Shown: positions 22,020-64,000, numbered from the stretch's first letter. The stretch: DNA of 64,000 nt from Octopus vulgaris (GCA_951406725.2 OX597817.1:158162001-158226000); one strand, 5' to 3'. The notes: generated from the sequence alone by a model not told the origin. Numbers and translations are program-made.

Positions 22020-23131
22020 GTAGTTCTTAAAAAAAATTTTCCAGCTGATTTTCAATAACACCTTCAATCACATCAATTATCCTTGCTTTCAAGTCTTCTA
22101 AAGGTTAATGCTTAGCTGAATAAACAATAGTTTTCACATGTCCCCATAAAAAGAAATCCAATGGAGTCAAATCTGGTGAAATGGAGGCCAAAATAATGGT
22201 CCACCTCTTTCAATCCATCATCATCATCATCGTTTAATGTCCGTTCTCCATGCTAGCATGGGTTGGACGGTTCGACCAGGGATCTGGGAAGCCAGAAGGC
22301 TGCACCAGGCTCCAGTCTTATCTGGCAATGTTTCTACAGCTGGATGCCCTTCCTAATGCCAACCATTCCGTGAGTGTAGTGGGTGCTTTTTACGTGCCAC
22401 CCGCACAGGTGCCAGGCGAGGCTGGCAATGGCCACGGTTGGATTGGTGCATTTTATGTGCCACCGGCACGGAAGCCAGTCGAGGCGGCGCTGGCATCGGC
22501 CAAGATTCGGATAGTGCTTTTTACGTACCACCTGTCCAGGGACCCTGGCATCTGCCGGGTGCTAGTCATAGGATTGGTTCAATTCCGATTTCGATTTCAC
22601 TTGCCCCAACATGTCTTCGCAAGCAGAGGGGGTTGGCATGGGTGCCTGTCGTCAGATGAGGTTCGATATCGACTTCACTTGCCTCAACAGGTCTTTGTGT
22701 CCAAGGGAGGAAAGGCATCCATAAGTGGGCTGTTAGGGAATTTCTCATTCAGAAACTACCTAACCTATTTCTTTACTGCCCACAAGGGGCTACACACACA
22801 GAGGGAACAAACAGATTAAGTCGATTATATCGACCCCAGTGCGTATCTAGTACTTATATAATCGACCCCGAAAGGATGAAAGGCAAAGTAGACCTCGGCG
22901 GAATTTGAACTCAGAATGTAACGGCAGACGAAATACGGTTACGCATTCCGCCCGGCGTGCTAACGTTTCTGCCAGCTCGCTGCCTTCTAGTTAGAAACTA
23001 CCTAACCTGCAAAGCAAAGTGACAAGGTGCACCACCTTGTTGAAAAACTGTATTCTCTATCAGTTCTGATTGTTCAAGCTTAGAAATGGAGTAATTTGGT
23101 AGCATTGCACCATGACTTTATGGACACCCTG
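22020..23131 (-). mobile_element. Tc1/mariner-superfamily (maT/DD37D-like) fossil interrupted by two SINEs
   Basis: TA|CAGGGTGTCC TIR at 23131; minus-strand pieces FQQGGAPCHFALQVR*FLNEKFPN / WIERGGPLFWPP..SPDLTPLDFFLWG separated by SINEs at ~22213-22730 and ~22767-22990 (TSD AGAAACTACCTAACCT). Confidence 0.8.
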
Positions 23132-26600: not shown

Positions 26601-29176
26601 TAATTAAAGTTATGTACCATACCAAAGTCTAAACTCATTAGAATGCGGTCAATAGCACAGCATCTTAGTCTCACAGCCCTTCTGATTCTAATACAAACCT
26701 GTACTAAATAATGGCAGTAAGCGCTTGGAAAACTGCTTTCCATGCAGTTTCAATACTCATTTCAGTCAATTTCCTTCCCTCATTCTTTGTAGCTTTCTCT
26801 CTTTGCAAGAAGAGAGCCCTAACCCTTCCCTGACAAAGGGGTATGAGATGTTTTGCCACAGCTATTTTGGTGTTGCTGATTCAATATGGACTTATTTGAT
26901 AACAGGCATGCTAATGTTTCTCTTGTTCTCTCCTTCCCTTCCTCTTTGTTTCTATTTATGTGAATATGAGCATATTTCTCTATGCGTATGAGGAGAAGGA
27001 AAATGTTTATGTTAAGTGCGTTCAATTAATACCAATATGTCTGTCTCTCTCTTTCTATCTATGTATATATTTCTGTGGGTTTGCCTCCAACACCAAAAAG
27101 TGCAGTCGCCAAAACAGGCTGAATGTCCAGTCAGTTGTACCTATTCATCAACATCCAGTCGTCTCGTTCAGGCTGACGAAGGGCCTGGGCCATATACATA
27201 CAAAAGACTGAATTCCATAAAAAATACCTGAGAAACAAGTGAATGTGATAGACTTAACATAACCCAGTAGTTTTGTTAGGCTTATTGCTCAACATAGTTA
27301 ACACCTCACACATGCAATACCCTCACATTCTTTGAAATGTGGCCCAACTAAAGTCGAAGATAAAGTCCCCAACAATGTGATTTATTTTATACAAACTAAT
27401 CAGTGCCGGTACCACATAAAAAGCATCCAGTCCACACTGGAAAGTGGTTGGCATTTGGAAGGGCATCCAGCTGTAAAAATCATGCCAAAACTAACTTTGT
27501 CTGTGTTAGTGCTACGTAAAAAACACTGAGTCAACTCTGAAGAGTGGTTGATGTTAGGAAGGGCATTCAACCATAAAAACAGACACAGTAGTCTAGGGTA
27601 GTCTTCTACCTGGCTAGCTCCTGTCAACCGTCCTACCTATGCATGCATGGGCATGGAAAATGGATATTAAACAATGATGATAATCAATAACTACCGAAAG
27701 TGATTCAATTATGAGGAGACGTTTCTTTAATAACTAGTTATTATTCATAACTAGATGAAAAGTTAACATTTAATATTTATTTACATATGCAAAAGAGTAG
27801 TGAAATGGTTTAAACAGAAGTGTACCAGATTACAGAGCTGTAAATTATATCTTTTTTACAAAAGAATAATAAATCAAAAATAATCTTACATTTACAGTGA
27901 TTTTGGTACGCATTGGGATGCCAGGTTTAAAATGAGCAGTCTTTTCATTAAAATCTCTACAAAACGTTCCTATCGCAACACCAAGCTGTAGAAAACAGAA
28001 ACATTTAGATTATAGGATACAATGGTCATAAGGGATCACAATAACAGAGGAATGACTAAACTGTTGAATTTAGTTTAAACATACTCTGTTACAAGAAAAT
28101 AAGTTATGAAATCTATAGACAGAATGGTACTTCCACCATACACGTATATTCATTCATACAATATTAAAGAAATGCAATAAGAATTTTTTTAAATCTTACA
28201 TCTATTGTTATTTTGGTTCGCTTTGGGACACCAAGTTTAAAATGGGTAGTTTCTGATTAAGGTATCCCAAATATTCTCTGGTAGATAATTGATGTTTCAA
28301 ATTACTATATCAAGCGACGTTCTAAGGAGATAATTCCAAACAGAAATCGATACCGAACCGCAACCCTAGAAATACACAATGCTTTTGTTTTTTCTTTTAG
28401 TCTCAACTGATACCTGCATCGCTAGTTTGAAATTATGTTTAACTACAGTTGCACTAGTTATTTGCATTTCTTACACAGACATTTTTTTCGGAGGAAGGGT
28501 TCATGCAGTTGATACGAAAAGTGAAATTGTGCCAGGGCCCTTAGTTTAGCCTATACAGGACAATGAATGGGTGAAAGGCAAAGTTGACTTCGAATTATTG
28601 ACAGTAAACAAAGTAAAAACAATATTCAACGAAGTCCACTTAAACACAAATACCTATTTCTTTAGTAACCACAAGGGGCTAAAAACAGAGAGCACAGACA
28701 AACGGTTTAAGTCGATTACATCGACCCCAGTGCGTAACTGGTACTTAATTTATCGACCCCGAAAGGATGAAAGGCAAAGTCGACCTCAGCGGAATTTGAA
28801 CTCAGAACCTAACGGCTACGCATTTCGCCCGGCGTGCTGACGTTTCTGCCAGCTCGCCGCCTTCTTAAACACAAATACCTCTAACTTGTGTACTGCTTTC
28901 AATGTCGTAGCTTTTCGAATTATTCAAACAACTATCTAAATATAAGGGGAAAACAAAAACACGACCGATATTTATACATGTGCCCTTAAACAACCTTGAC
29001 TATATTCTGAGACTTACCTGCCCGAGTCGAGGTCCTAATGGCGGAGCAGCTACAGCTTTGCCACATGGTATAATAGGTTTTAAGGTCTGAGTTTGTCTCT
29101 GCTTACTTTTATCCATAACTTGTTTACCAGCCATGCCAGCAGCTTTCCCAAATTTTCTCCCAGCTTTAGAAGCCAT
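23431..29176 (-). CDS. MRPL11: mitochondrial ribosomal protein L11 (uL11m), complete, 203 aa; complement(join(23431..23693,25813..25906,27890..27985,29018..29176))
   Basis: MASKAGRKFGKAAGMAGKQVMDKSKQRQTQTLKPIIPCGKAVAAPPLGPRLGQ/LGVAIGTFCRDFNEKTAHFKPGIPMRTKITVN/PDRSYQLDLLTPPTSYFLKQAAGIEKAAMVG/GGEVSGKLTLKHIYEIAKIKSEDP...KQAKMLRI*. uL11 motifs (PPLGPxLGQ, FCxxFNExT, P(T)SYFLKxAAG, HIYEIAKIK). 612 nt in total, all introns GT-AG. Confidence 0.96.
23865..24070 (+). mobile_element. 3' fragment of the same CR1 family
   Basis: VADPWNKLPDEMVKMPTT..., shared 3' UTR and (TAAC)n tail. Confidence 0.8.
25813..25906 (-). CDS. MRPL11: MRPL11 exon 3
   Basis: 94 nt, phase 0-1, tattag acceptor and gtaaga donor. 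Confidence 0.95.
27890..27985 (-). CDS. MRPL11: MRPL11 exon 2
   Basis: 96 nt, phase 0-0, ctacag acceptor and gtaaga donor. Confidence 0.95.
28200..28277 (-). pseudogene. decayed tandem duplicate of MRPL11 exon 2 (pseudo-exon)
   Basis: Translates ETTHFKLGVPKRTKITID|gtaaga versus KTAHFKPGIPMRTKITVN|gtaaga in the real exon 2; the 5' part is disrupted and contains an in-frame TAA. Confidence 0.75.
28655..28865 (-). mobile_element. tRNA-derived SINE family C; other copies ~21825-22008 +, ~22767-22990 -, ~29308-29425 continuing at ~32363-32552 -
   Basis: GGCGAGCTGGCAGAAACGT..GAGTTCAAATTC head followed by GCCTTTCATCCTTTCGGGGTCGATAAATTAAGTACCAG central domain. Confidence 0.8.
29018..29176 (-). CDS. 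MRPL11: MRPL11 exon 1
   Basis: ATG at 29176, 53 codons, cag|gtaagt donor. Confidence 0.94.
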
Positions 29177-29425
29177 GTTGCCGAATGTCGTTTGTGTCGA
29201 TTATCTCCCTTGATCAAGGGACATAATCCCGACTGTCTTACAATTTCACCTCTTTTAAAGTAATGAGAGCAGATGACATTAACACCAGTCTCACATAGCG
29301 TGATCTGTTTCTTTATTACGTAACTGGTACTTAATTTATCGACCCCAAAAGGATGAAAGGCAAAGTCGACCTCGGCGAAATTTGAACCCAGAATGTAATG
29401 GCAGGCGAAATACCTATTTCTTTAC

Positions 29426-29603
29426 GGTACTTGTCTATTGTCGTGGTCCCGGTTTCGCACACGCGAATTCGCGCGTGCACACGCGCCAGACGTAGGTACT
29501 CGATACTCGAGATCCTACGAGGTGACTTGCGCATGCGCAGTGCAGAATTCGCGCATGCGCGTTAAACCCCCCCCCAAAAAAAAGGTGTTGGATTTCACTA
29601 AAA

Positions 29604-29644
<41 letters not shown>

Positions 29645-30788
29645 ATATTTTCAATTTTACACAAAAAAATTACATAGTCGCTTTCCTCGCGGATTTACAG
29701 AGAAATGAATTAATTACTATTTTACAGAATAAAATTAATGAATTAATTATATAAATTAAATAATTCTTGAAAATTAATTAATATTAATAATATTTTTTGA
29801 ACAAAGTAAATAATTTATAAAACTTGGTTAATAATTTTTTTTACACAAACGCGAACGTATATAATTTGTGAAACTTTTTTTTTTTTACAGACGTATATAA
29901 TTTGGTAAACTTAATGAATTAATTTCTTCTCATCATCATCATCGTTTAACGTCCGTTCTCCATGCCAGCATGGGTTGGACGGTTCGACCGATCTGGGAAG
30001 CCAGAAGGCTGCACCAGACTCCAGTCTTATCTGGCAATGTTTCTACAGCTGGATGCCCTTCCTAACGCCAACCACTCCGAGAGTGTAGTGGGTGCTTTTT
30101 ACATGCCACCCGCACAGGTGCCAGGCGAGGCTGGCAACGGCCACGGTCGGATTGGTGCCAGTCGAGGCGGCTCTGGCATCGGCCACCTTTCGGATAGTGC
30201 TTTTTACGTACCACCAGTCCAGGGGTCCTGGCATTTGCCGGGTGCCACACTTGCCCCAACATGTCTTCGCAAGCAAAGGGGTTGGCATGGGTGCCTGTCG
30301 TGGGATGAGGTTCGATATCAACTTCGCTTGCCTCAACAGGTCTTTGTGTATAAATGTATAAATTTTTCGCACTAAATTCTTTCCGTAGAATTTATCAAAA
30401 AACGCGCAAAATTATTCCGTAGACTTTATCAAATTAAAAAACGCAAAATTAATATATTTTTTGAAATTGCAAATTATTTAGAATATAAAACAAATTAAGT
30501 TAAATTTTAAAAATAAATGTCATATACTTATACTCTGTAAGGTGCTGTGTTCACACTTCAATTTACTATTTTCTAGAAATGTTGCTTTTCTAATTGAAAC
30601 AATTTTTCTCAATCTCCATTTAAAAGTCCATAATGCCTCTTGAGCCATATCAAAATGAACAACTTTGAATTACGCAGCGGCGGTGGTGGTGGTGGTGTGA
30701 GGTTCTAATTTTTTTTTCTGATCTCTCTTTGCCCCCCTAGATGGAGGTGTGGTGGGGAGACAGATGAAAGATGTTTCATTCTCTACTA

Positions 30789-30849
<61 letters not shown>

Positions 30850-32353
30850 CTTAAACCTACACGATATAGTCTATAAATTTGGGATGTTTTTGAAAGATAA
30901 TATATTTTGTCATCAGAATATATATACTTTCTCACACTACAATTAAGATATATTTATTTTAAATCGTTCATCTTTTCCCGCGACAACAAAAATTGGGCGC
31001 GAAAATTTTTCTAAATATTAGCTGAATGAACAACTGAGATAAAGAGGGGGCAAAGAGAGATCAGAAAAAAAATTAGAACCTCACACCACCACCACCACCA
31101 CCACCGCCGCTGCGTAATTCAAAGTTGTTCATTTTGATATGGCTCAAGAGGCATTATGGACTTTTAAATGGAGATTGAGAAAAATTGTTTCAATTAGAAA
31201 AGCAACATTTCTAGAAAATAGTAAATTGAAGTGTGAACACAGCACCTTACAGAGTATAAGTATATGACATTTATTTTTAAAATTTAACTTAATTTGTTTT
31301 ATATTCTAAATAATTTGCAATTTCAAAAAATATATTAATTTTGCGTTTTTTAATTTGATAAAGTCTACGGAATAATTTTGCGCGTTTTTTGATAAATTCT
31401 ACGGAAAGAATTTAGTGCGAAAAATTTATACATTTATACACAAAGACCTGTTGAGGCAAGCGAAGTTGATATCGAACCTCATCCCACGACAGGCACCCAT
31501 GCCAACCCCCTTTGCTTGCGAAGACATGTTGGGGCAAGTGTGGCACCCGGCAAATGCCAGGACCCCTGGACTGGTGGTACGTAAAAAGCACTATCCGAAA
31601 GGTGGCCGATGCCAGAGCCGCCTCGACTGGCACCAATCCGACCGTGGCCGTTGCCAGCCTCGCCTGGCACCTGTGCGGGTGGCATGTAAAAAGCACCCAC
31701 TACACTCTCGGAGTGGTTGGCGTTAGGAAGGGCATCCAGCTGTAGAAACATTGCCAGATAAGACTGGAGTCTGGTGCAGCCTTCTGGCTTCCCAGATCCC
31801 CGGTCGAACCGTCCAACCCATGCTGGCATGGAGAACGGACGTTAAACGATGATGATGATGAGAAGAAATTAATTCATTAAGTTTACCAAATTATATACGT
31901 CTGTAAAAAAAAAAAAGTTTCACAAATTATATACGTTCGCATTTGTGTAAAAAAAATTATTAACCAAGTTTTATAAATTATTTACTTTGTTCAAAAAATA
32001 TTATTAATATTAATTAATTTTCAAGAATTATTTAATTTATATAATTAATTCATTAATTTTATTCTGTAAAATAGTAATTAATTCATTTCTCTGTAAATCC
32101 GCGAGGAAAGCGACTATGTAATTTTTTTGTGTAAAATTGAAAATATTATATATACACACACACACACACATATATATTTTTAGTGAAATCCAACACCTTT
32201 TTTTTGGGGGGGGTTAACGCGCATGCGCGAATTCTGCACTGCACATGTGCAAGTCACCTCGTCGGATCTCGAGTATCGAGTACCTACGTCTGGCGCGCGT
32301 GCACGCGCGAATTCGCGTGTGCGAAACCGGGACCACGACAATAGACAAGTACC
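29426..32353. mobile_element. non-autonomous foldback / Mutator-like DNA transposon with ~1.3-kb TIRs
   Basis: 29426-30736 is the reverse complement of 31046-32353; termini GGTACTTGTC...GACAAGTACC; 9-bp TSD TTTCTTTAC at 29417-29425 and 32354-32362; splits a SINE that continues on the other side. Confidence 0.92.
29528..29560. promoter_or_regulatory. two NRF1/Ewg-type GCGCATGCGC palindromes ~350 bp upstream of the MRPL11 ATG
   Basis: TGCGCATGCGCA at 29528-29539 and GCGCATGCGC at 29551-29560; function untested. Confidence 0.4.
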
Positions 32354-32900
32354 TTTCTTTACTATCCACAAGGGGCTAAAAACAGAGAGGACAGACAAAC
32401 GGATTAAGTCGATTATATCGACCCCGTGCGTAACTGGTAGTTAATTTATCGACCCCGAAAGGATGAAAGGCAAAGTTATGACGTAACGGCAGACGAATTA
32501 CGGCTACGCATTTCGCCCGGCGTGCTAACGTTTCTGCCAGCTCGCCGCCTTTCTAACATAGCTTGATCGTGTAACCAAATGAGACATCGACACTTCATCT
32601 CTTATTACCACTGCTGACTTGTGAAAGAAGACTAAAACGTACAATTCAAATAGCTCGTCCGAATTTGGACGAGAGTTTCATTTTAATCTTTCTATGTAGA
32701 GGAATAAAGTTGGTTTTCCTTAGTTATACCACAGCATAAACAAGTCTGAGCGGCATCGAAATGACCTAAAAGGTTAGAGGATACGATAAACCGAACTAGG
32801 ACTAATTTAAGAATGGGGGCAGAATGTTTGGATTCCTTCGGAATCAATTTGACTATTGCACTTTTATAATACGAGGGTGGTCTGATAAGTTCATAAACTA

Positions 32901-33304
32901 GGATCTTTTCGGTTTGAACGGCAGTTTTTTCAATATGAAATTGTCCCCCATAATTATGACCCTAGTATCGATCTATTGCATTTCAATCTGTTTTAGGGTT
33001 AGGGTTTTTGGGGGAAGGGTATCTTTTTTTCTTCAGAAATATAAATAAATCCAATCTGTTTCTTAAACGAAGGACATATTCATACAGCACAGAATGCTTT
33101 TTAACTCAATAAACATCGCTGATTGGTTGAAATTGCAGAAATTGAAGAAAAAAACAACAAATATCTTACAAACCATAGAATTTTCTCAATAAAGCCAAGA
33201 GAAAAAGATGTTTTATAAACACATTCTACCAGTATACGAAGTTTAAAATTTTTTTATTTACCTAGAAATTATGTTAAAAACTGCCGTTCAAACCGAAAAG
33301 ATCC
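32901..33304. mobile_element. MITE with ~29-bp TIRs
   Basis: GGATCTTTTCGGTTTGAACGGCAGTTTTT ... AAAAACTGCCGTTCAAACCGAAAAGATCC; internal TTAGGG repeats. Confidence 0.8.
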
Positions 33305-33368
33305 GAATCAATTTGACTATTACACTTCAGTTGAACGAGCGCTAAACTTTCATTTACTTTTTATAATA

Positions 33369-36300
33369 CGAGGGTGATCTGAGAAGTTCACAAGCTAACT
33401 ACAAAGAAGTGGTGCAAGAGCTATAGAATATTGCATGCATTAATTTCAACACATTTTATTAACAGCTGCATTGCTTCTTTCCAAGTAAAATGATATCTGA
33501 CTGTTCAAAGAACACTTCCAAAGTAACTGGCAGCAACATTCCTTGAAAATGGACAAAATTTGGCATCGTGTTGTTATCCTGCACCTGTGGTAAAACGGTG
33601 TAGCCACCGATATTCATGTTGATATTGTTGCTGCATTAGGGTATGACACTCCAGCTTTATCAACAGTACAAAAGTGGGCAGCTGAGTTTAGGAGAGGAGG
33701 GGAGAGTCTGGAGGTTGACCCAAAGCCTGGACGTCCTGCAACTGTCACCATTAATGAAAATATTGATCGTGTTTAACTCAGTGATGGATGACATGTGATT
33801 GATAGCCAATGCTACTAGAATATCTTGTAAGAGAGCTGAGAATGTTCTGAACAATGAGCTTGGTAAGTTTCTGCTCGGTAGATGTCACATCTATTGACAC
33901 CTAATCAAAAGCACACCTGGCTGATCATATCACAGGAAAATCTGACATTATTTAAAGCAGATCCAGCTAGTTTCTTTGAACGTTTCTTAAGCCAGGATGA
34001 GTGTTGTCAGCATCACTTTGAACCAGAGACAAAGAGACAATCCATTCAGTGGAAACACTTCTCCTTACCTGCTCCCAAACAGCCAAGGTTGTTTTATCTA
34101 CAGAGAAGGTGATGGCCTGTTTTTGGGGGATGCAAAATTATTTTCAAAAGGGCCACACCATCAATGGTGGGTACCATGCCAAATTGCTGAGGTAGTTACG
34201 AAAGGCTATGAAGACCAAATGCGCAGAAAACTGACAAAAGAGGTTTGGTTTCATGAGGACAATGTCGTAGCACACAAGTCCTTGGTTTCAATGGTTGCTG
34301 TGTGTAACTGTGGCTTTAAATTGATTGATCACCCTCCCTATTCTCTTGATTTGGCCCCATATTCCCCAACATAAAAAAGCACTTGGCTGGGAACTAGTAT
34401 CACACTAATGTCATATAGGCTGCTGATGACTTTTTTGCCCAACATGGTAAGTTAAGTTAGTTAAGTTAATTTTTTGGCTCAAAAAGCAAAAAGCAAGGCC
34501 ATGTAGGGGGACATGGAGTTATGTACAGGGAGGGTGTTCATGCAAAGAGTTCAGGCCATTTCTGGTCAAGAGAGACTTTGAACCGAGCGGTCGTCGGCAT
34601 CTTCACTATATCGTCCGGCAGCTTATTCCACGGATCCGCAACCCGGACAGAGAAAGCCCCTCTCCTTTGATTGAGATGAAAGCGTCGCAGATGGAGCTTT
34701 TTGGAGTGACCCTGCAGCCGACACTTTGGAGCAGAAGTGAAGAACAGCTCTTTCGAGAGGTTACACTTTCCGCTTATGATGTTGTGAGCAAGAATGAGAT
34801 CACCACGGCGTCGTCGTTTTTCTAGAGAATAAAGGTCGAGTGTCTTCAGCCTTCATAAGACAAATGCTTGAGACCAAGAACCATGCGGGTAGCCAGCTTC
34901 TGGACTCTTTCGAGATGATGTATGTTTTTGAAGAGATAAGAAGAGGCTTGAATCCCATACTCCAATATGGGTCTCACCAACGTGACATAGAGCGGTAGGA
35001 ATATGGCTGCTGTGAGCATTCCGAATGACCGTCGAATCAAAAATAGAACTCCGCGTGCTTTGTTGGCAGCATGGATACACTAGGCCGAAGGCAAAAAGGA
35101 AGAATCCACCAAGATACCCAGGTCCTTTACCTGGTTGGTCCTCTCCAGCAGCAGACGACCCAGCTCGAAATCAAGTTGAGTTGCAGGAGAGCCAACAGGC
35201 GGATGACAGCACTTTGACACGTTCAGACACAGGTCCCATTCGTTAGACCATCTCTAAACTTGGTGGAGGCATCGACGAAGATCATCTATATCACCACGAG
35301 GAACGACCAGTTTGACATCATCGGCAAATAGAAGGGTATGTTGCGTGAGGTCGTTAGGCAAGTAATTTATGAAGACTAAAAACAATAGGGGCCCAAGCAC
35401 TGAACCTTGAGGCACACCACTGCTCGCACTGGAGACGTTGGACAGCGAACCATTAACTTGGAAGGAGCGATCTGAGAGGAAGGCACCAACCCATCATACA
35501 ATATCCGGATGGAAACTATATGCTTGAAGCTTGACAAGTAATAGGTGGTGGTTAACCGAGTCAAAAGCTTTAGCAAAGTCCAATAAAACAATGTCAACAG
35601 CATCACCATCATCCAGGATACGCGTCACCAATTCTTCCATTACCAGTAAGTTGGTCAAGCTTGATCTCTTCGGCACGAAGCTGTGTTGGGAATCAGAGAT
35701 AGAGGCTGTGTTTTGGAGGTGGAGCATCATACTTTTCTTAAGGATGGTTTCGAACATCCTGCTGATTATTGAAGTAAGGGAAACCGGTCGGTAGTTAAGC
35801 GGGTCTTCGCGGCTCCCTTTCTTGAAAATTGGGTAGATTATCGCTGTTCTCCAGTCCACAGTTATAACACCCATCGCCAATGACATATTGAATAGAAGTG
35901 TTCAAGGTTCGCAGATGACCAGAGCCAACGCTTTGATAACCTGTGGGTGTATGCCGTGACCCTTGTTGACATCGAGGCCTTGAATAATGCGTTTGACTTC
36001 GTCCCGAGTGATGCCCAATCTAGGCATTGGAGGTACCGATCTATCAAATGGAGGGGGTTCACGACCATCATCTTGTTTGAAAATAGTTGAAAAAGCCTTG
36101 GCAAATAACTGACTCTGCTGATAAGGGTCCTCAATCGATACGCTTGTTGAGTCTACCAACGTTGCAATTTGGTTGTTCAAGCGGGAATTCCGTTGGACAT
36201 GGGCAAAGAAGGTTTTTGGATTGCGACTGGCGTTTGCCACGATTCTGTATTCATATCTGAAGCGTTCTTCTTTTTCAATTTTCACGGCTCGGTCTCGTTG

Positions 36301-36672
36301 AGTTTTGTACACCTCAAAAGCTGCAGTCGAATCTAGATTTTTGAATTCAGCCCAAGCAATATCTCTGAGTCGAAGTTCTCGTTTAACCTTCTTCGTCACC
36401 CAGGGCTTGTGTTTCTTCTTCTTGGGAAGCCCAACGGGAACTGCTTGGTCAGTCAACCAGATTACATATGCTTTGAGGGACGACCATAGTTCGTCAACTG
36501 AGGACATCGTCATCAGGGATCGCCAGTCCAGAAGTGATGAAAGCTTCTTCACTAATGGGATCCAATGGAAATGTGTGGGCCACAGAGGGGACAATGTTGA
36601 AAAATAAACCTCATTTCGTCACATTCTATAATAGTATCTGGGTCAACTTATGAACATTTCAGCTGATCCTCG
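33369..36672 (+). mobile_element. decayed mariner transposon interrupted by a CR1 LINE
   Basis: TA|CGAGGGTGATCTGAGAAGTTC ... GAACATTTCAGCTGATCCTCG|TA; transposase relics QDE..HHFEPETKRQSIQWK, FHEDN, HPPYSLDLAP, and DESFFTNGIQ..GDNVEK* after the LINE. Confidence 0.85.
34448..36535 (-). mobile_element. 5'-truncated CR1-clade LINE, ORF2 RT region, frameshifted
   Basis: PIFKKGSREDPLNYRPVSLTS, LDFAKAFDSVNH, LFADD, LYVTLVRPILEYG, LERVQKLATRMV, WNKLP motifs; (TTAAC/TAAC)n tail at ~34448-34470. Confidence 0.92.
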
Positions 36673-60583: not shown

Positions 60584-61806
60584 CCCTTTAGTGTTTAACC
60601 CTTTCGTTACCAAACCGCCCAAAGCCGCCCGAAAAAAATTTTGGTTAATGAGACCAAACCGCCCAAAGCCGCCCGAATTTACCTATTCATATTTAAATGA
60701 GAATATCAGAGCAAATCTCTTTAGTACATTCGTGAAAACACGTATTATACTTCGTAAAGAGTTCAACTACAGTTTTGAACAATAATCGAAGTGTAATTTT
60801 TATTCCGTGAATTTTGGGAGATTTTTTTCCGAAATTTGTTCCTATTGTGTTTTCAAAATTTGTAATTCTGACAAAAAATGGATACGAATTTCATTATATC
60901 AAGCAGCGAGTCAGAATTCAAAGGATTTTCTACTGAAGACCTTCATAAATCTAACTCTATGACTGAAAAAAAAAAGCATGTGGTATTTGATAATGAATCT
61001 GATGTTTCATTTTCCGAAAGTGAAAACTGTGAATCCGAGATCGACAGCGATAAAGAAAATGAATTGGCACCTGAATGGAGTGAACATTTAAAAACTGTTT
61101 CTTTCGGTGATTTTTCTGAAGAAACTGGACCAAGTCACAGACTTTCCCAGAAGAGTAAAGCCTTAAACTATTTCTTTTTACTTTTTCGAATGAGCCTATT
61201 TGAAATCATTAAGACTATTTTGCCATAAATATTATTATGGGTATCAGAAAGTTACCCAGAATAACAAATTCTATCGTAAAATTTTGTTGTATACCCAATT
61301 GAATATTAGCTAATAACCCATTTTCTATAGTGATGTTTGAACAAAATTTTAATAATTTTATATTTTGTTGAATTTACCTGTATCTACCTGCAATTAGAGT
61401 CACTTTGTGACAAAAATTGTAGTATAGAATTGGTTGAGAATATTTCATTAAATTATCTTCCAAAAATCAGATTAATATATCGATAAATAAAAAAGTTATA
61501 GTTGTTTAATGAAACCAGACTAAATTTATGATTACGTTAGAAATTAATTGAAACACATAAGGGGTGTAATTTGGTCAGAAATATAGTAACGAAAGGGTTA
61601 AACCGGCCATATCCGGCCCAAATATTCTAAATGTTTTATATTCAAACTGGCGATATCTATCCTCTCACACTTAACCTACAATGTCATGCTAAAAATAAAC
61701 AATCACATCACTGAAACCTCAAAGCTGTAAGATAATGCATGATTAATTCAAAACAATTTGAGTGAAAAAGTATTATATTTAACAGAGTAATCTGAATACT
61801 AAAGGG
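60584..61806 (+). mobile_element. piggyBac MITE (~220 bp when the nested insert is removed)
   Basis: TTAA|CCCTTTAG ... CTAAAGGG|TTAA; the body resembles the 5' end of the element at 63083. Confidence 0.85.
60599..61597 (+). mobile_element. deleted piggyBac element nested in a piggyBac MITE
   Basis: TTAA|CCCTTTCGTTAC ... GTAACGAAAGGG|TTAA; retains the transposase N-terminus (ORF 60878-61228, FSEETGP..LNYFFLLF). Confidence 0.9.
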
Positions 61807-63082: not shown

Positions 63083-64000
63083 CCCTTTAGTGTTCAAACC
63101 GGCCATATCCGGCCAGAATTAATTCCCCTTTATTTGTTCAAACCGGCCAAATCCGGCCGTAAATGACCACTCTACGAAATCGCTAAAAAAATAAACAAAT
63201 CACGTTATTAAATTCTCGTAGCTTTGAGATAATGCGAGATGAAGCCTTTCCCGCCTTTATTCAAGTATAAATACTGTGAAATTGTTTCGACCACATGGTT
63301 ATTTCCACGTGTGAAGAGAACTGTATACGTTTGTTGTGAAAAAAATGGCGTCAGCAAGTAGCGATTCCGATTTTGAAGGCTTTACCATTGATGATGTTGA
63401 AGATATCAACGAAAACAAAAGTCTTTTGACTTGGGATGAGTCTGATATTGATATCAGCGATTATTCGTCGGACGAAGAAAATTTCGATGACGAAAGTGAA
63501 GAAAATGAAAGTGATGAAAACGATAGTGTAAACAAGGCAACATGGTCGAAAATTACGACACCAGTAACAATTTCTGATTTTACAGAAAACACTGGTCCAC
63601 AACATGATTTACCTCCTGATGCTCAACCACTGGATTATCTATTTTTATTTTTGCCTCAAAGTTTTTTTGAAAATGTTGCGGAGCAAACGAACAAATATGC
63701 CCAACATTTAATTTCTGTTCGTGGAAGGAGCGATCCGCTATGGCTGCCAACAAATACTGTGGAAATAAGAGCATTTTTTGCGATCAACATTATGTTTGGA
63801 GTCAGACAGCTTCCTCGACTGTGGAACTATTGGAGTCCCGATGTAAGGTATGGCGATCCATATATTTCAAGCATCATGTCGAAGACGAGGTATTCGAAAA
63901 TATCTCAGTATTTGCATTTGACTGATTCTTCCAATGCCCCCAACAAAAACGACCCAAACTACCATCCCCTGTACAAAGTACGTCCGGTAATTGATTTACT
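63083..64000 (+). mobile_element. piggyBac transposon, 5' end (potentially autonomous)
   Basis: TTAA at 63079-63082, then CCCTTTAG TIR and ACCGGCCAWATCCGGCC subterminal repeats upstream of the transposase ORF. Confidence 0.9.
63345..64000 (+). CDS. piggyBac transposase (PGBD4-like, DDE_Tnp_1_7), open frame truncated by the window end
   Basis: 218 uninterrupted codons MASASSDSDFEGF...FTENTGP...PLDYLFLFLP...EQTNKYAQ...EIRAFFAINIMFG...NYWS...IMSKTRYSKISQYLHLTD...HPLYKVRPVIDL; absent from the ORF track because there is no stop inside the window. Confidence 0.92.
   Translation, partial: MASASSDSDFEGFTIDDVEDINENKSLLTWDESDIDISDYSSDEENFDDESEENESDENDSVNKATWSKITTPVTISDFTENTGPQHDLPPDAQPLDYLFLFLPQSFFENVAEQTNKYAQHLISVRGRSDPLWLPTNTVEIRAFFAINIMFGVRQLPRLWNYWSPDVRYGDPYISSIMSKTRYSKISQYLHLTDSSNAPNKNDPNYHPLYKVRPVIDL

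Follow-up and report, generated by a model that had tools for sequence, protein, structure and literature searches.

The stretch of DNA analysed here, referred to as the window, covers 64 kb of the Octopus vulgaris genome and includes the mitochondrial ribosomal protein gene MRPL11. All four of the exons scanned were assigned by Pfam to the L11 family, exons 2-4 above the curated cut-off and exon 1 below it (E 0.0044). The first coding exon lies at 29021-29176 on the minus strand, and its ATG is 249 bp from a foldback element of 2928 bp with GG...CC ends (29426-32353), which is consistent with an earlier sequence-only reading that had placed the element ~250 bp upstream of a housekeeping start codon. 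The 9-bp target-site duplication reported by that reading was also found: TTTCTTTAC is present on the plus strand directly outside the GG end (29417-29425) and again directly outside the CC end (32354-32362). Removal of the element together with one copy of the duplication gave an unbroken SINE start, as seen in all three other copies aligned within the window. Thus, the interrupted SINE, whose body belongs to a second SINE family (32354-32551), does resume across the element as had been proposed, with the correction that the left side holds only ~15 bp of it, duplication included. This short piece is preceded by another SINE fragment (29319-29413), which separates the insertion site from the DNA upstream of MRPL11, so that the landing place is a stack of SINEs. 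The proposal that the original upstream DNA had been pushed away holds for the SINE body, which is the DNA displaced, and not for the 142 bp of unique sequence between the MRPL11 ATG and the first SINE (29177-29318), which are still in place.

Several other features could be observed in the neighbourhood. A decayed duplicate of MRPL11 exon 2 is present in intron 1 (28192-28301, minus strand); of the 54 bases at its end, 44 agree with exon 2 and the splice donor, and frame breaks and a stop occur farther upstream. It is likely a pseudo-exon derived from a tandem exon duplication. Upstream of the element, within the next 4 kb outward, there are decayed pieces which we take, from their motifs, to be mariner-like and LINE reverse-transcriptase-like (32838-34400 and 35497-36618); a Pfam scan of 33991-34371 gave only a sub-threshold, unrelated match. 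At the end of the window, a DDE_Tnp_1_7 transposase frame (63315-63998, plus strand; Pfam E 7.9e-24), presumably piggyBac-like, is preceded upstream by a similar acidic frame (60872-61225, plus strand) with no Pfam match.

The element consists of a left arm of 1311 bp starting with GGTAC (29426-30736), a right arm of 1308 bp terminating in GTACC (31046-32353) and a spacer of 309 bp with 25% GC and a (TA)n tract at about 30787-30847 (30737-31045). Local alignment of the left arm with the reverse complement of the right arm (29426-30736 against 32353-31046) gave 1293 matches, 5 substitutions and 6 indels, and a repeat finder recovered the identical arms, in pieces. All five substitutions are located at CpG sites (four transitions and one transversion), four of them in the outermost 115 bp. 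The indels measure 2, 10, 3, 1, 6 and 1 bp; the 3-bp one lies in the SINE part of the arms and the rest in homopolymer or microsatellite runs. The arms make up 89.4% of the element. These measurements agree closely with the earlier description of a ~90% palindrome having exactly these arm coordinates and a (TA)n spacer of ~310 bp, in which the arms differ by a 3-bp indel, repeat lengths and substitutions mostly (in fact always) at CpG.

The arm ends had been described as CpG-rich and packed with palindromes, and this was also observed. The outer 140 bp have 57% GC and a CpG observed/expected ratio of 1.75, compared with 0.50 for the whole window, and their folding was better than that of 199 of 200 shuffled sequences (z -3.6). 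In the left outer end (29426-29565), which is likely to be the transposase-binding end, there are short palindromes as well as a 22-bp motif that recurs at a spacing of 80 bp; the counterpart of this end in the right arm is at 32214-32353. Within the window, the terminal 15-mer was found without mismatch only at the two ends of the element, and two additional matches with 3 mismatches were at chance level. A search of Rfam gave two weak matches, both to mir-297 on (TG)n tracts, which were rejected (26-30 bits, the gathering score being 90). As a separate observation, the window has four E2F-like words, two of which lie in the spacer (at 30974 and 30997), facing each other; any function is putative.

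Each arm also carries, as the sequence-only reading did not mention, a truncated copy of an abundant SINE-like repeat, on the minus strand in the left arm (29930-30349) and on the plus strand in the right arm (31438-31861). The left copy (420 bp) shares 82% identity with a free copy at 22218-22700, and it has many weaker relatives in the window; the other copies continue beyond the position corresponding to 30349. The only differences between the two arm copies are two small indels. Thus, the SINE probably inserted first, and the arm was then either duplicated or overwritten from the opposite arm.

We then examined whether the element is part of a family by comparing positions 28870-30786 of the window (flank and arm on the left side, plus 50 bp of spacer) with four of 24 listed public sequencing runs, three in the form of contigs (X1, X5 and X4) and one as raw reads (X22). 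The contig runs bear two organism labels, the second being that of X4. The MRPL11 region was used as the single-copy reference, with one contig per run and depths of 63.9 (X1), 20.1 (X5) and 53.6 (X4). Single contigs over non-SINE arm DNA reached 28, 45, 71, 87 and 95 times the MRPL11 depth (five pieces among those listed, from X5 and X4). Over 11 non-SINE arm bins in the three runs, the summed depth was 8-1929 times single-copy, summed contig depth not being equivalent to copy number. The bin at the border between arm and spacer had 206, 18 and 56 times the single-copy depth in the three runs, and the inner arm was ~3-4 times deeper than this bin in all of them. These depths suggest at least dozens of arm copies, perhaps hundreds. 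The sequence-only reading had expected further copies in the genome, and this is borne out for the arm sequence, which is multi-copy in three runs as judged by the contig depth of the left arm, the arm compared. No piece bridging the left insertion junction was found among the contig pieces listed. In X22, labelled as the same species as X1, we could place no more than 27 of 12.9 million reads, even over SINEs that were enormously deep in the contig runs; this scarcity may reflect another organism, a label problem or a filter.

A contig at ~95 times single-copy depth connects the end of the SINE with the inner arm. Its SINE portion, at 29 letters, is two short of our bridging rule (31 letters), and the contig suggests that the SINE is part of the multi-copy family beyond the present copy. 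Shorter multi-copy arm variants could also be observed in X4: one omits 29863-30400, including the SINE (depth 1948, ~36 times single-copy), and another joins 29510 to 29835 (depth 1645). One of them may be either a SINE-free ancestor or a later deletion. With regard to the flank, contigs of X1 and X5 extend from MRPL11 into the SINE fragment at 29319-29413. In X4, under the second organism label, the MRPL11 upstream region (28870-29319) shows 10 substitutions and a 13-bp insertion at 29261 relative to the window, and the match of the contig ends where the SINE fragment of the window begins.

At a rate of 0.0036 substitutions per million years (quoted in PMC13282606), the five substitutions in 1298 aligned bases correspond to an arm divergence of ~0.5 million years, and the upper 95% bound from non-CpG sites, at which there are no substitutions, is ~0.35 million years. 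It should be noted that such values date the last time at which the arms were identical, and not necessarily the insertion. Both arms have A at position 29479 (read as T at 32300 on the plus strand), whereas the contig depth is almost entirely G at this position (30238 of 30424 in X1, and throughout in X5 and X4). This hints that the change was copied between arms, in the present copy or in its parent. The lack of this A in X5 and X4 could mean that they are devoid of the insertion, but we do not claim polymorphism, as contigs show presence only, among the rows listed.

In the six-frame translation, each arm was seen to encode, close to its inner end, a short peptide resembling the N-terminal region of Merlin transposases. 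Comparison with Octopus Merlin proteins revealed two blocks in each arm. In the right arm, block 1 (WLKRHYGLLN; 31140-31169, plus strand) corresponds by eye to residues 29-37 of XP_029648038.1, and block 2 (RKIVSIRKATFLENSKLKCE; 31178-31237, plus strand) to residues 70-89 of the same protein. In the left arm, the two blocks are on the minus strand at 30618-30647 and 30550-30609, respectively, block 1 being in a different frame from block 2. Block 2 is identical to the protein at 18 of 20 residues, as counted by eye from supplement passages and unscored by an aligner; block 1, also by eye, contains all nine residues of an Octopus nine-residue motif plus one inserted residue. In the appendix of Merlin proteins of PMC8101967 (1,426,409 characters), the block 2 word TFLENSKLKC occurs in five entries and the nine-residue word of block 1 in six, all of which are from Octopus. 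Four entries have both words in the same order as in the element, with a spacing of 32 residues, whereas the element has 8 bases between its blocks; therefore, about 90 bp would have been lost between blocks 1 and 2, with a change of frame. None of five control 10-mers, for which other arm frames were used, was present in the same appendix.

The chance expectation for one exact 10-mer ranges from 0.0008 to 0.29, depending on the residue frequencies assumed. Since a single 10-mer can be expected by chance at up to the latter value, the case for homology is carried by the longer match together with the second block, and two collinear blocks together would appear to put chance out of reach. We also scanned the six frames of the window for five short motifs from Octopus Merlin proteins, allowing at most one mismatch. 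The N-terminal motif (block 1), which had been chosen from the paper first, had two matches in the whole window, one in each arm, and none of the four catalytic-region motifs was found in the element. On the basis of these data, the earlier statement that the element has no coding capacity is correct for intact frames and needs correction for a broken Merlin transposase remnant in both arms.

Searches with the 49-residue frame containing block 2 gave no additional support: Pfam returned no family, a homologue search among longer proteins no candidate, the ESM Atlas no usable match and phmmer no hit at E up to 0.001 among 1.84 billion representatives. A metagenome match, the only one of 587 candidate stretches to pass, was antisense to a bacterial acyltransferase-like frame and without fitting inverted ends, and was regarded as chance. 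An alignment of the residues just before block 2 in this frame with the protein was dropped when block 1 was found in the other frame. The left part of the spacer, read outward (30720-30780, minus strand), encodes a short peptide starting with Met, in which 4 of 11 residues agree by eye with the start of the Octopus Merlin proteins; this weak likeness may be a chance match. With respect to an intact transposase, the element contains no long frame except those overlapping the SINE. It also lacks the DDE_Tnp_IS1595 domain that is diagnostic of an autonomous Merlin and, as judged from its sequence, is not one.

According to PMC8101967, which cites the original description (Feschotte 2004), Merlin elements terminate in GG, make target duplications of 8 or 9 bp and carry terminal inverted repeats (TIRs) of 24-462 bp, compared with arms of 1.3 kb here. 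The features of Merlin found at this locus are GG at both ends of the inverted repeat, a 9-bp duplication (for one copy), descent from a transposase gene and dispersed arm sequence. Long inverted repeats and a 9-bp duplication are also traits of Mutator, MULE and FB elements; being common to Merlin, they do not discriminate. The sequence-only reading had assigned the element to Mutator. GG ends and 8-9-bp duplications are Merlin features as well, and Octopus Merlin is the one transposase to which homology was found in the element. Since the ends and the duplication suit both types equally and the remnant is Merlin, the family is likely to be of Merlin type, corrected from Mutator, in the form of a non-autonomous derivative with foldback arms. 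The other part of that reading, a young non-autonomous foldback transposon, fits our results, the element being young-looking, bounded by a 9-bp duplication and multi-copy in its arm sequence. Octopuses are known to harbour Merlin elements: O. bimaculoides is rich in Merlin, with 191 proteins (PMC8101967), and the 2026 annotation of O. vulgaris includes 18 Merlin consensus sequences covering 2,185,638 bp (PMC13282606). The family described here may already be included in the Zenodo consensus library of the latter study. No Octopus families were observed among the Repbase Merlins in the available part of the feature table of PMC8101967, a search of its supplements gave no Octopus Merlin DNA, and we found no description of an Octopus Merlin foldback in titles and abstract openings of the mostly open-access literature, Repbase and Dfam lying outside this search.

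Taken together, we consider it probable that the element is a non-autonomous Merlin derivative, a multi-copy non-coding foldback that was cut and pasted into this site by Merlin transposase from an intact element elsewhere. We infer mobilisation by Merlin, the order of events and the mechanism of repair as follows. An ancestral Merlin would have lost most of its reading frame, through the internal deletion of ~90 bp between the blocks and loss of the entire catalytic domain, and would have taken up the SINE. During repair of a break, the half from the transposase start to one end was then likely copied, in inverted orientation, over the opposite half. The outcome would be two near-identical arms of 1.3 kb with equal transposase-binding ends and a short spacer. 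As the two remnants point away from the spacer, it would be the downstream half that was duplicated, provided that the orientation of the remnant was kept. The foldback form would then have been amplified in trans by intact Merlin, and one copy would have inserted at the SINE start upstream of MRPL11, creating the 9-bp duplication. Later changes in the arms would be confined to CpG sites and repeat tracts, with copying between arms likely maintaining their likeness.

Among the other explanations, one accepts the Merlin descent and differs in where the palindrome was made: the family would have short ends of the ordinary kind and a right half unlike the present one, and in this copy one arm would have been overwritten with the other after insertion. 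The near identity of the arms, which share a variant absent from most of the contig depth, is what such an event would leave, and conversion-driven local extension of inverted repeats has been proposed for Galileo (PMC3573991). In addition, the border between left arm and spacer was covered by our comparison with public reads and the right border lay outside it. However, the left spacer border is itself multi-copy, and the ~3-4-fold greater depth of the inner arm fits two arms per element, among other explanations. The size of the element is also close to that of recently active Merlin insertions in O. vulgaris, which comprise 2 families and 11 insertions with an average of ~2.6 kb (28,998 bp over 11; PMC13282606). 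We therefore consider a palindrome made at this locus unlikely.

Also unlikely, in our opinion, is a Mutator/Foldback-type element carrying a captured Merlin fragment and the SINE as cargo in its arms. Elements of this type have 9-11-bp duplications, long internally repetitive inverted arms and G-rich ends, and MULEs capture DNA; the 9-bp duplication, the arms and the ends observed here would fit, and the Merlin scrap could be cargo with the ends from another source. On the other hand, no MULE homology could be observed in the six-frame translations of the element, and Pfam was blank on the single frame scanned. The sole transposase trace is Merlin, and the ends and duplication length described for Merlin fit equally well (PMC8101967).

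Finally, the suspicion of an assembly fold-back, raised in the sequence-only reading and nourished by the general proneness of long palindromes to assembly error and by the lack of a listed read or contig bridging the insertion junction, hardly deserves credit, because the arms differ at 5 CpG sites and by 6 indels, the spacer is asymmetric and the differing flanks rebuild an intact SINE around the 9-bp duplication, and the DNA of the arm and spacer border is moreover multi-copy in three public runs.

The preferred reading, a multi-copy Merlin foldback, has several implications. Young multi-copy inverted repeats of 1.3 kb that are nearly perfect would give rise to rearrangements, assembly errors and double-stranded RNA. 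If transcribed, the element would yield an RNA with a very stable stem (z -22 for the central 501 nt), which is a trivial consequence of the sequence; the cruciform or hairpin RNA foreseen in the sequence-only reading is putative in cells. The octopus lineage is known for heavy RNA editing. A far-reaching and, at present, highly improbable extension is that the family would act as a mobile 'Merlin killer', analogous to maize Mu killer: within it, the 5' portion of the family's transposase would be held together with the most abundant SINE of the genome in a perfect stem of 1.3 kb kept by conversion, and double-stranded RNA from read-through transcription might feed small-RNA silencing of Merlin and the SINE, or soak up ADAR editing, with the spacer acting as an outward promoter near genes such as MRPL11. 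If the insertion is polymorphic, a copy located 249 bp from a housekeeping start codon would be a simple regulatory test case.

Compared with its closest relatives, the Octopus Merlin lineage (XP_029648038.1, XP_029657075.1, XP_029646117.1 and XP_029633801.1), the element is alike in two near-identical N-terminal blocks, and differs in having no intact frame, none of the four catalytic motifs and a remnant that is present twice, in inverted orientation. With the Merlin superfamily (IS1016/IS1595-related) as a whole it shares GG ends and the 9-bp duplication (PMC8101967). Non-autonomous Merlins with long arms are already known from zebrafish: TIRs of 1000 bp are listed for Merlin-N5_DR and Merlin-1_DR (Repbase, in S1 Table of PMC8101967), a comparison made by table only. 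Merlin-N5_DR is non-autonomous and has mirror-placed internal repeats, in a different phylum from the element (PMC8101967). With regard to the origin of the arms, the mariner MITEs Dromar7, 11, 28 and 36 of Drosophila are likewise non-autonomous, with long TIRs and one part replaced by the inverted other (PMC4161770). They belong to another superfamily, and the 5' part replaced the 3' part in all seven sublineages (PMC4161770), whereas the outward remnants suggest the reverse for our element.

Other comparisons come from foldback elements in general. The 2RT copies of Galileo and Drosophila Foldback are also foldback in structure, with TIRs of up to 1,250 bp that are longest in non-autonomous copies, and Galileo has recruited internal DNA into its TIR; TIR length was considered an unreliable criterion for classification (PMC3573991). 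Galileo differs in its P superfamily transposase and 7-bp duplications, and a SINE in both arms was not among the features described in the available part of that study (PMC3573991). Maize Mu killer is likewise an inverted duplication containing a partial transposase gene, with the potential to form a long hairpin RNA (PMC3440606). In contrast with our element, it occupies one locus, for which read-through transcription was proposed and silencing demonstrated (PMC3440606), whereas the stem described here includes ~100 bp of decayed transposase and is known from DNA alone. Each ingredient of the element has a precedent in other transposon families. It offers a clear animal example of a foldback built from a decayed transposon, in which the SINE and the transposase scrap in the arms would record the order of events.
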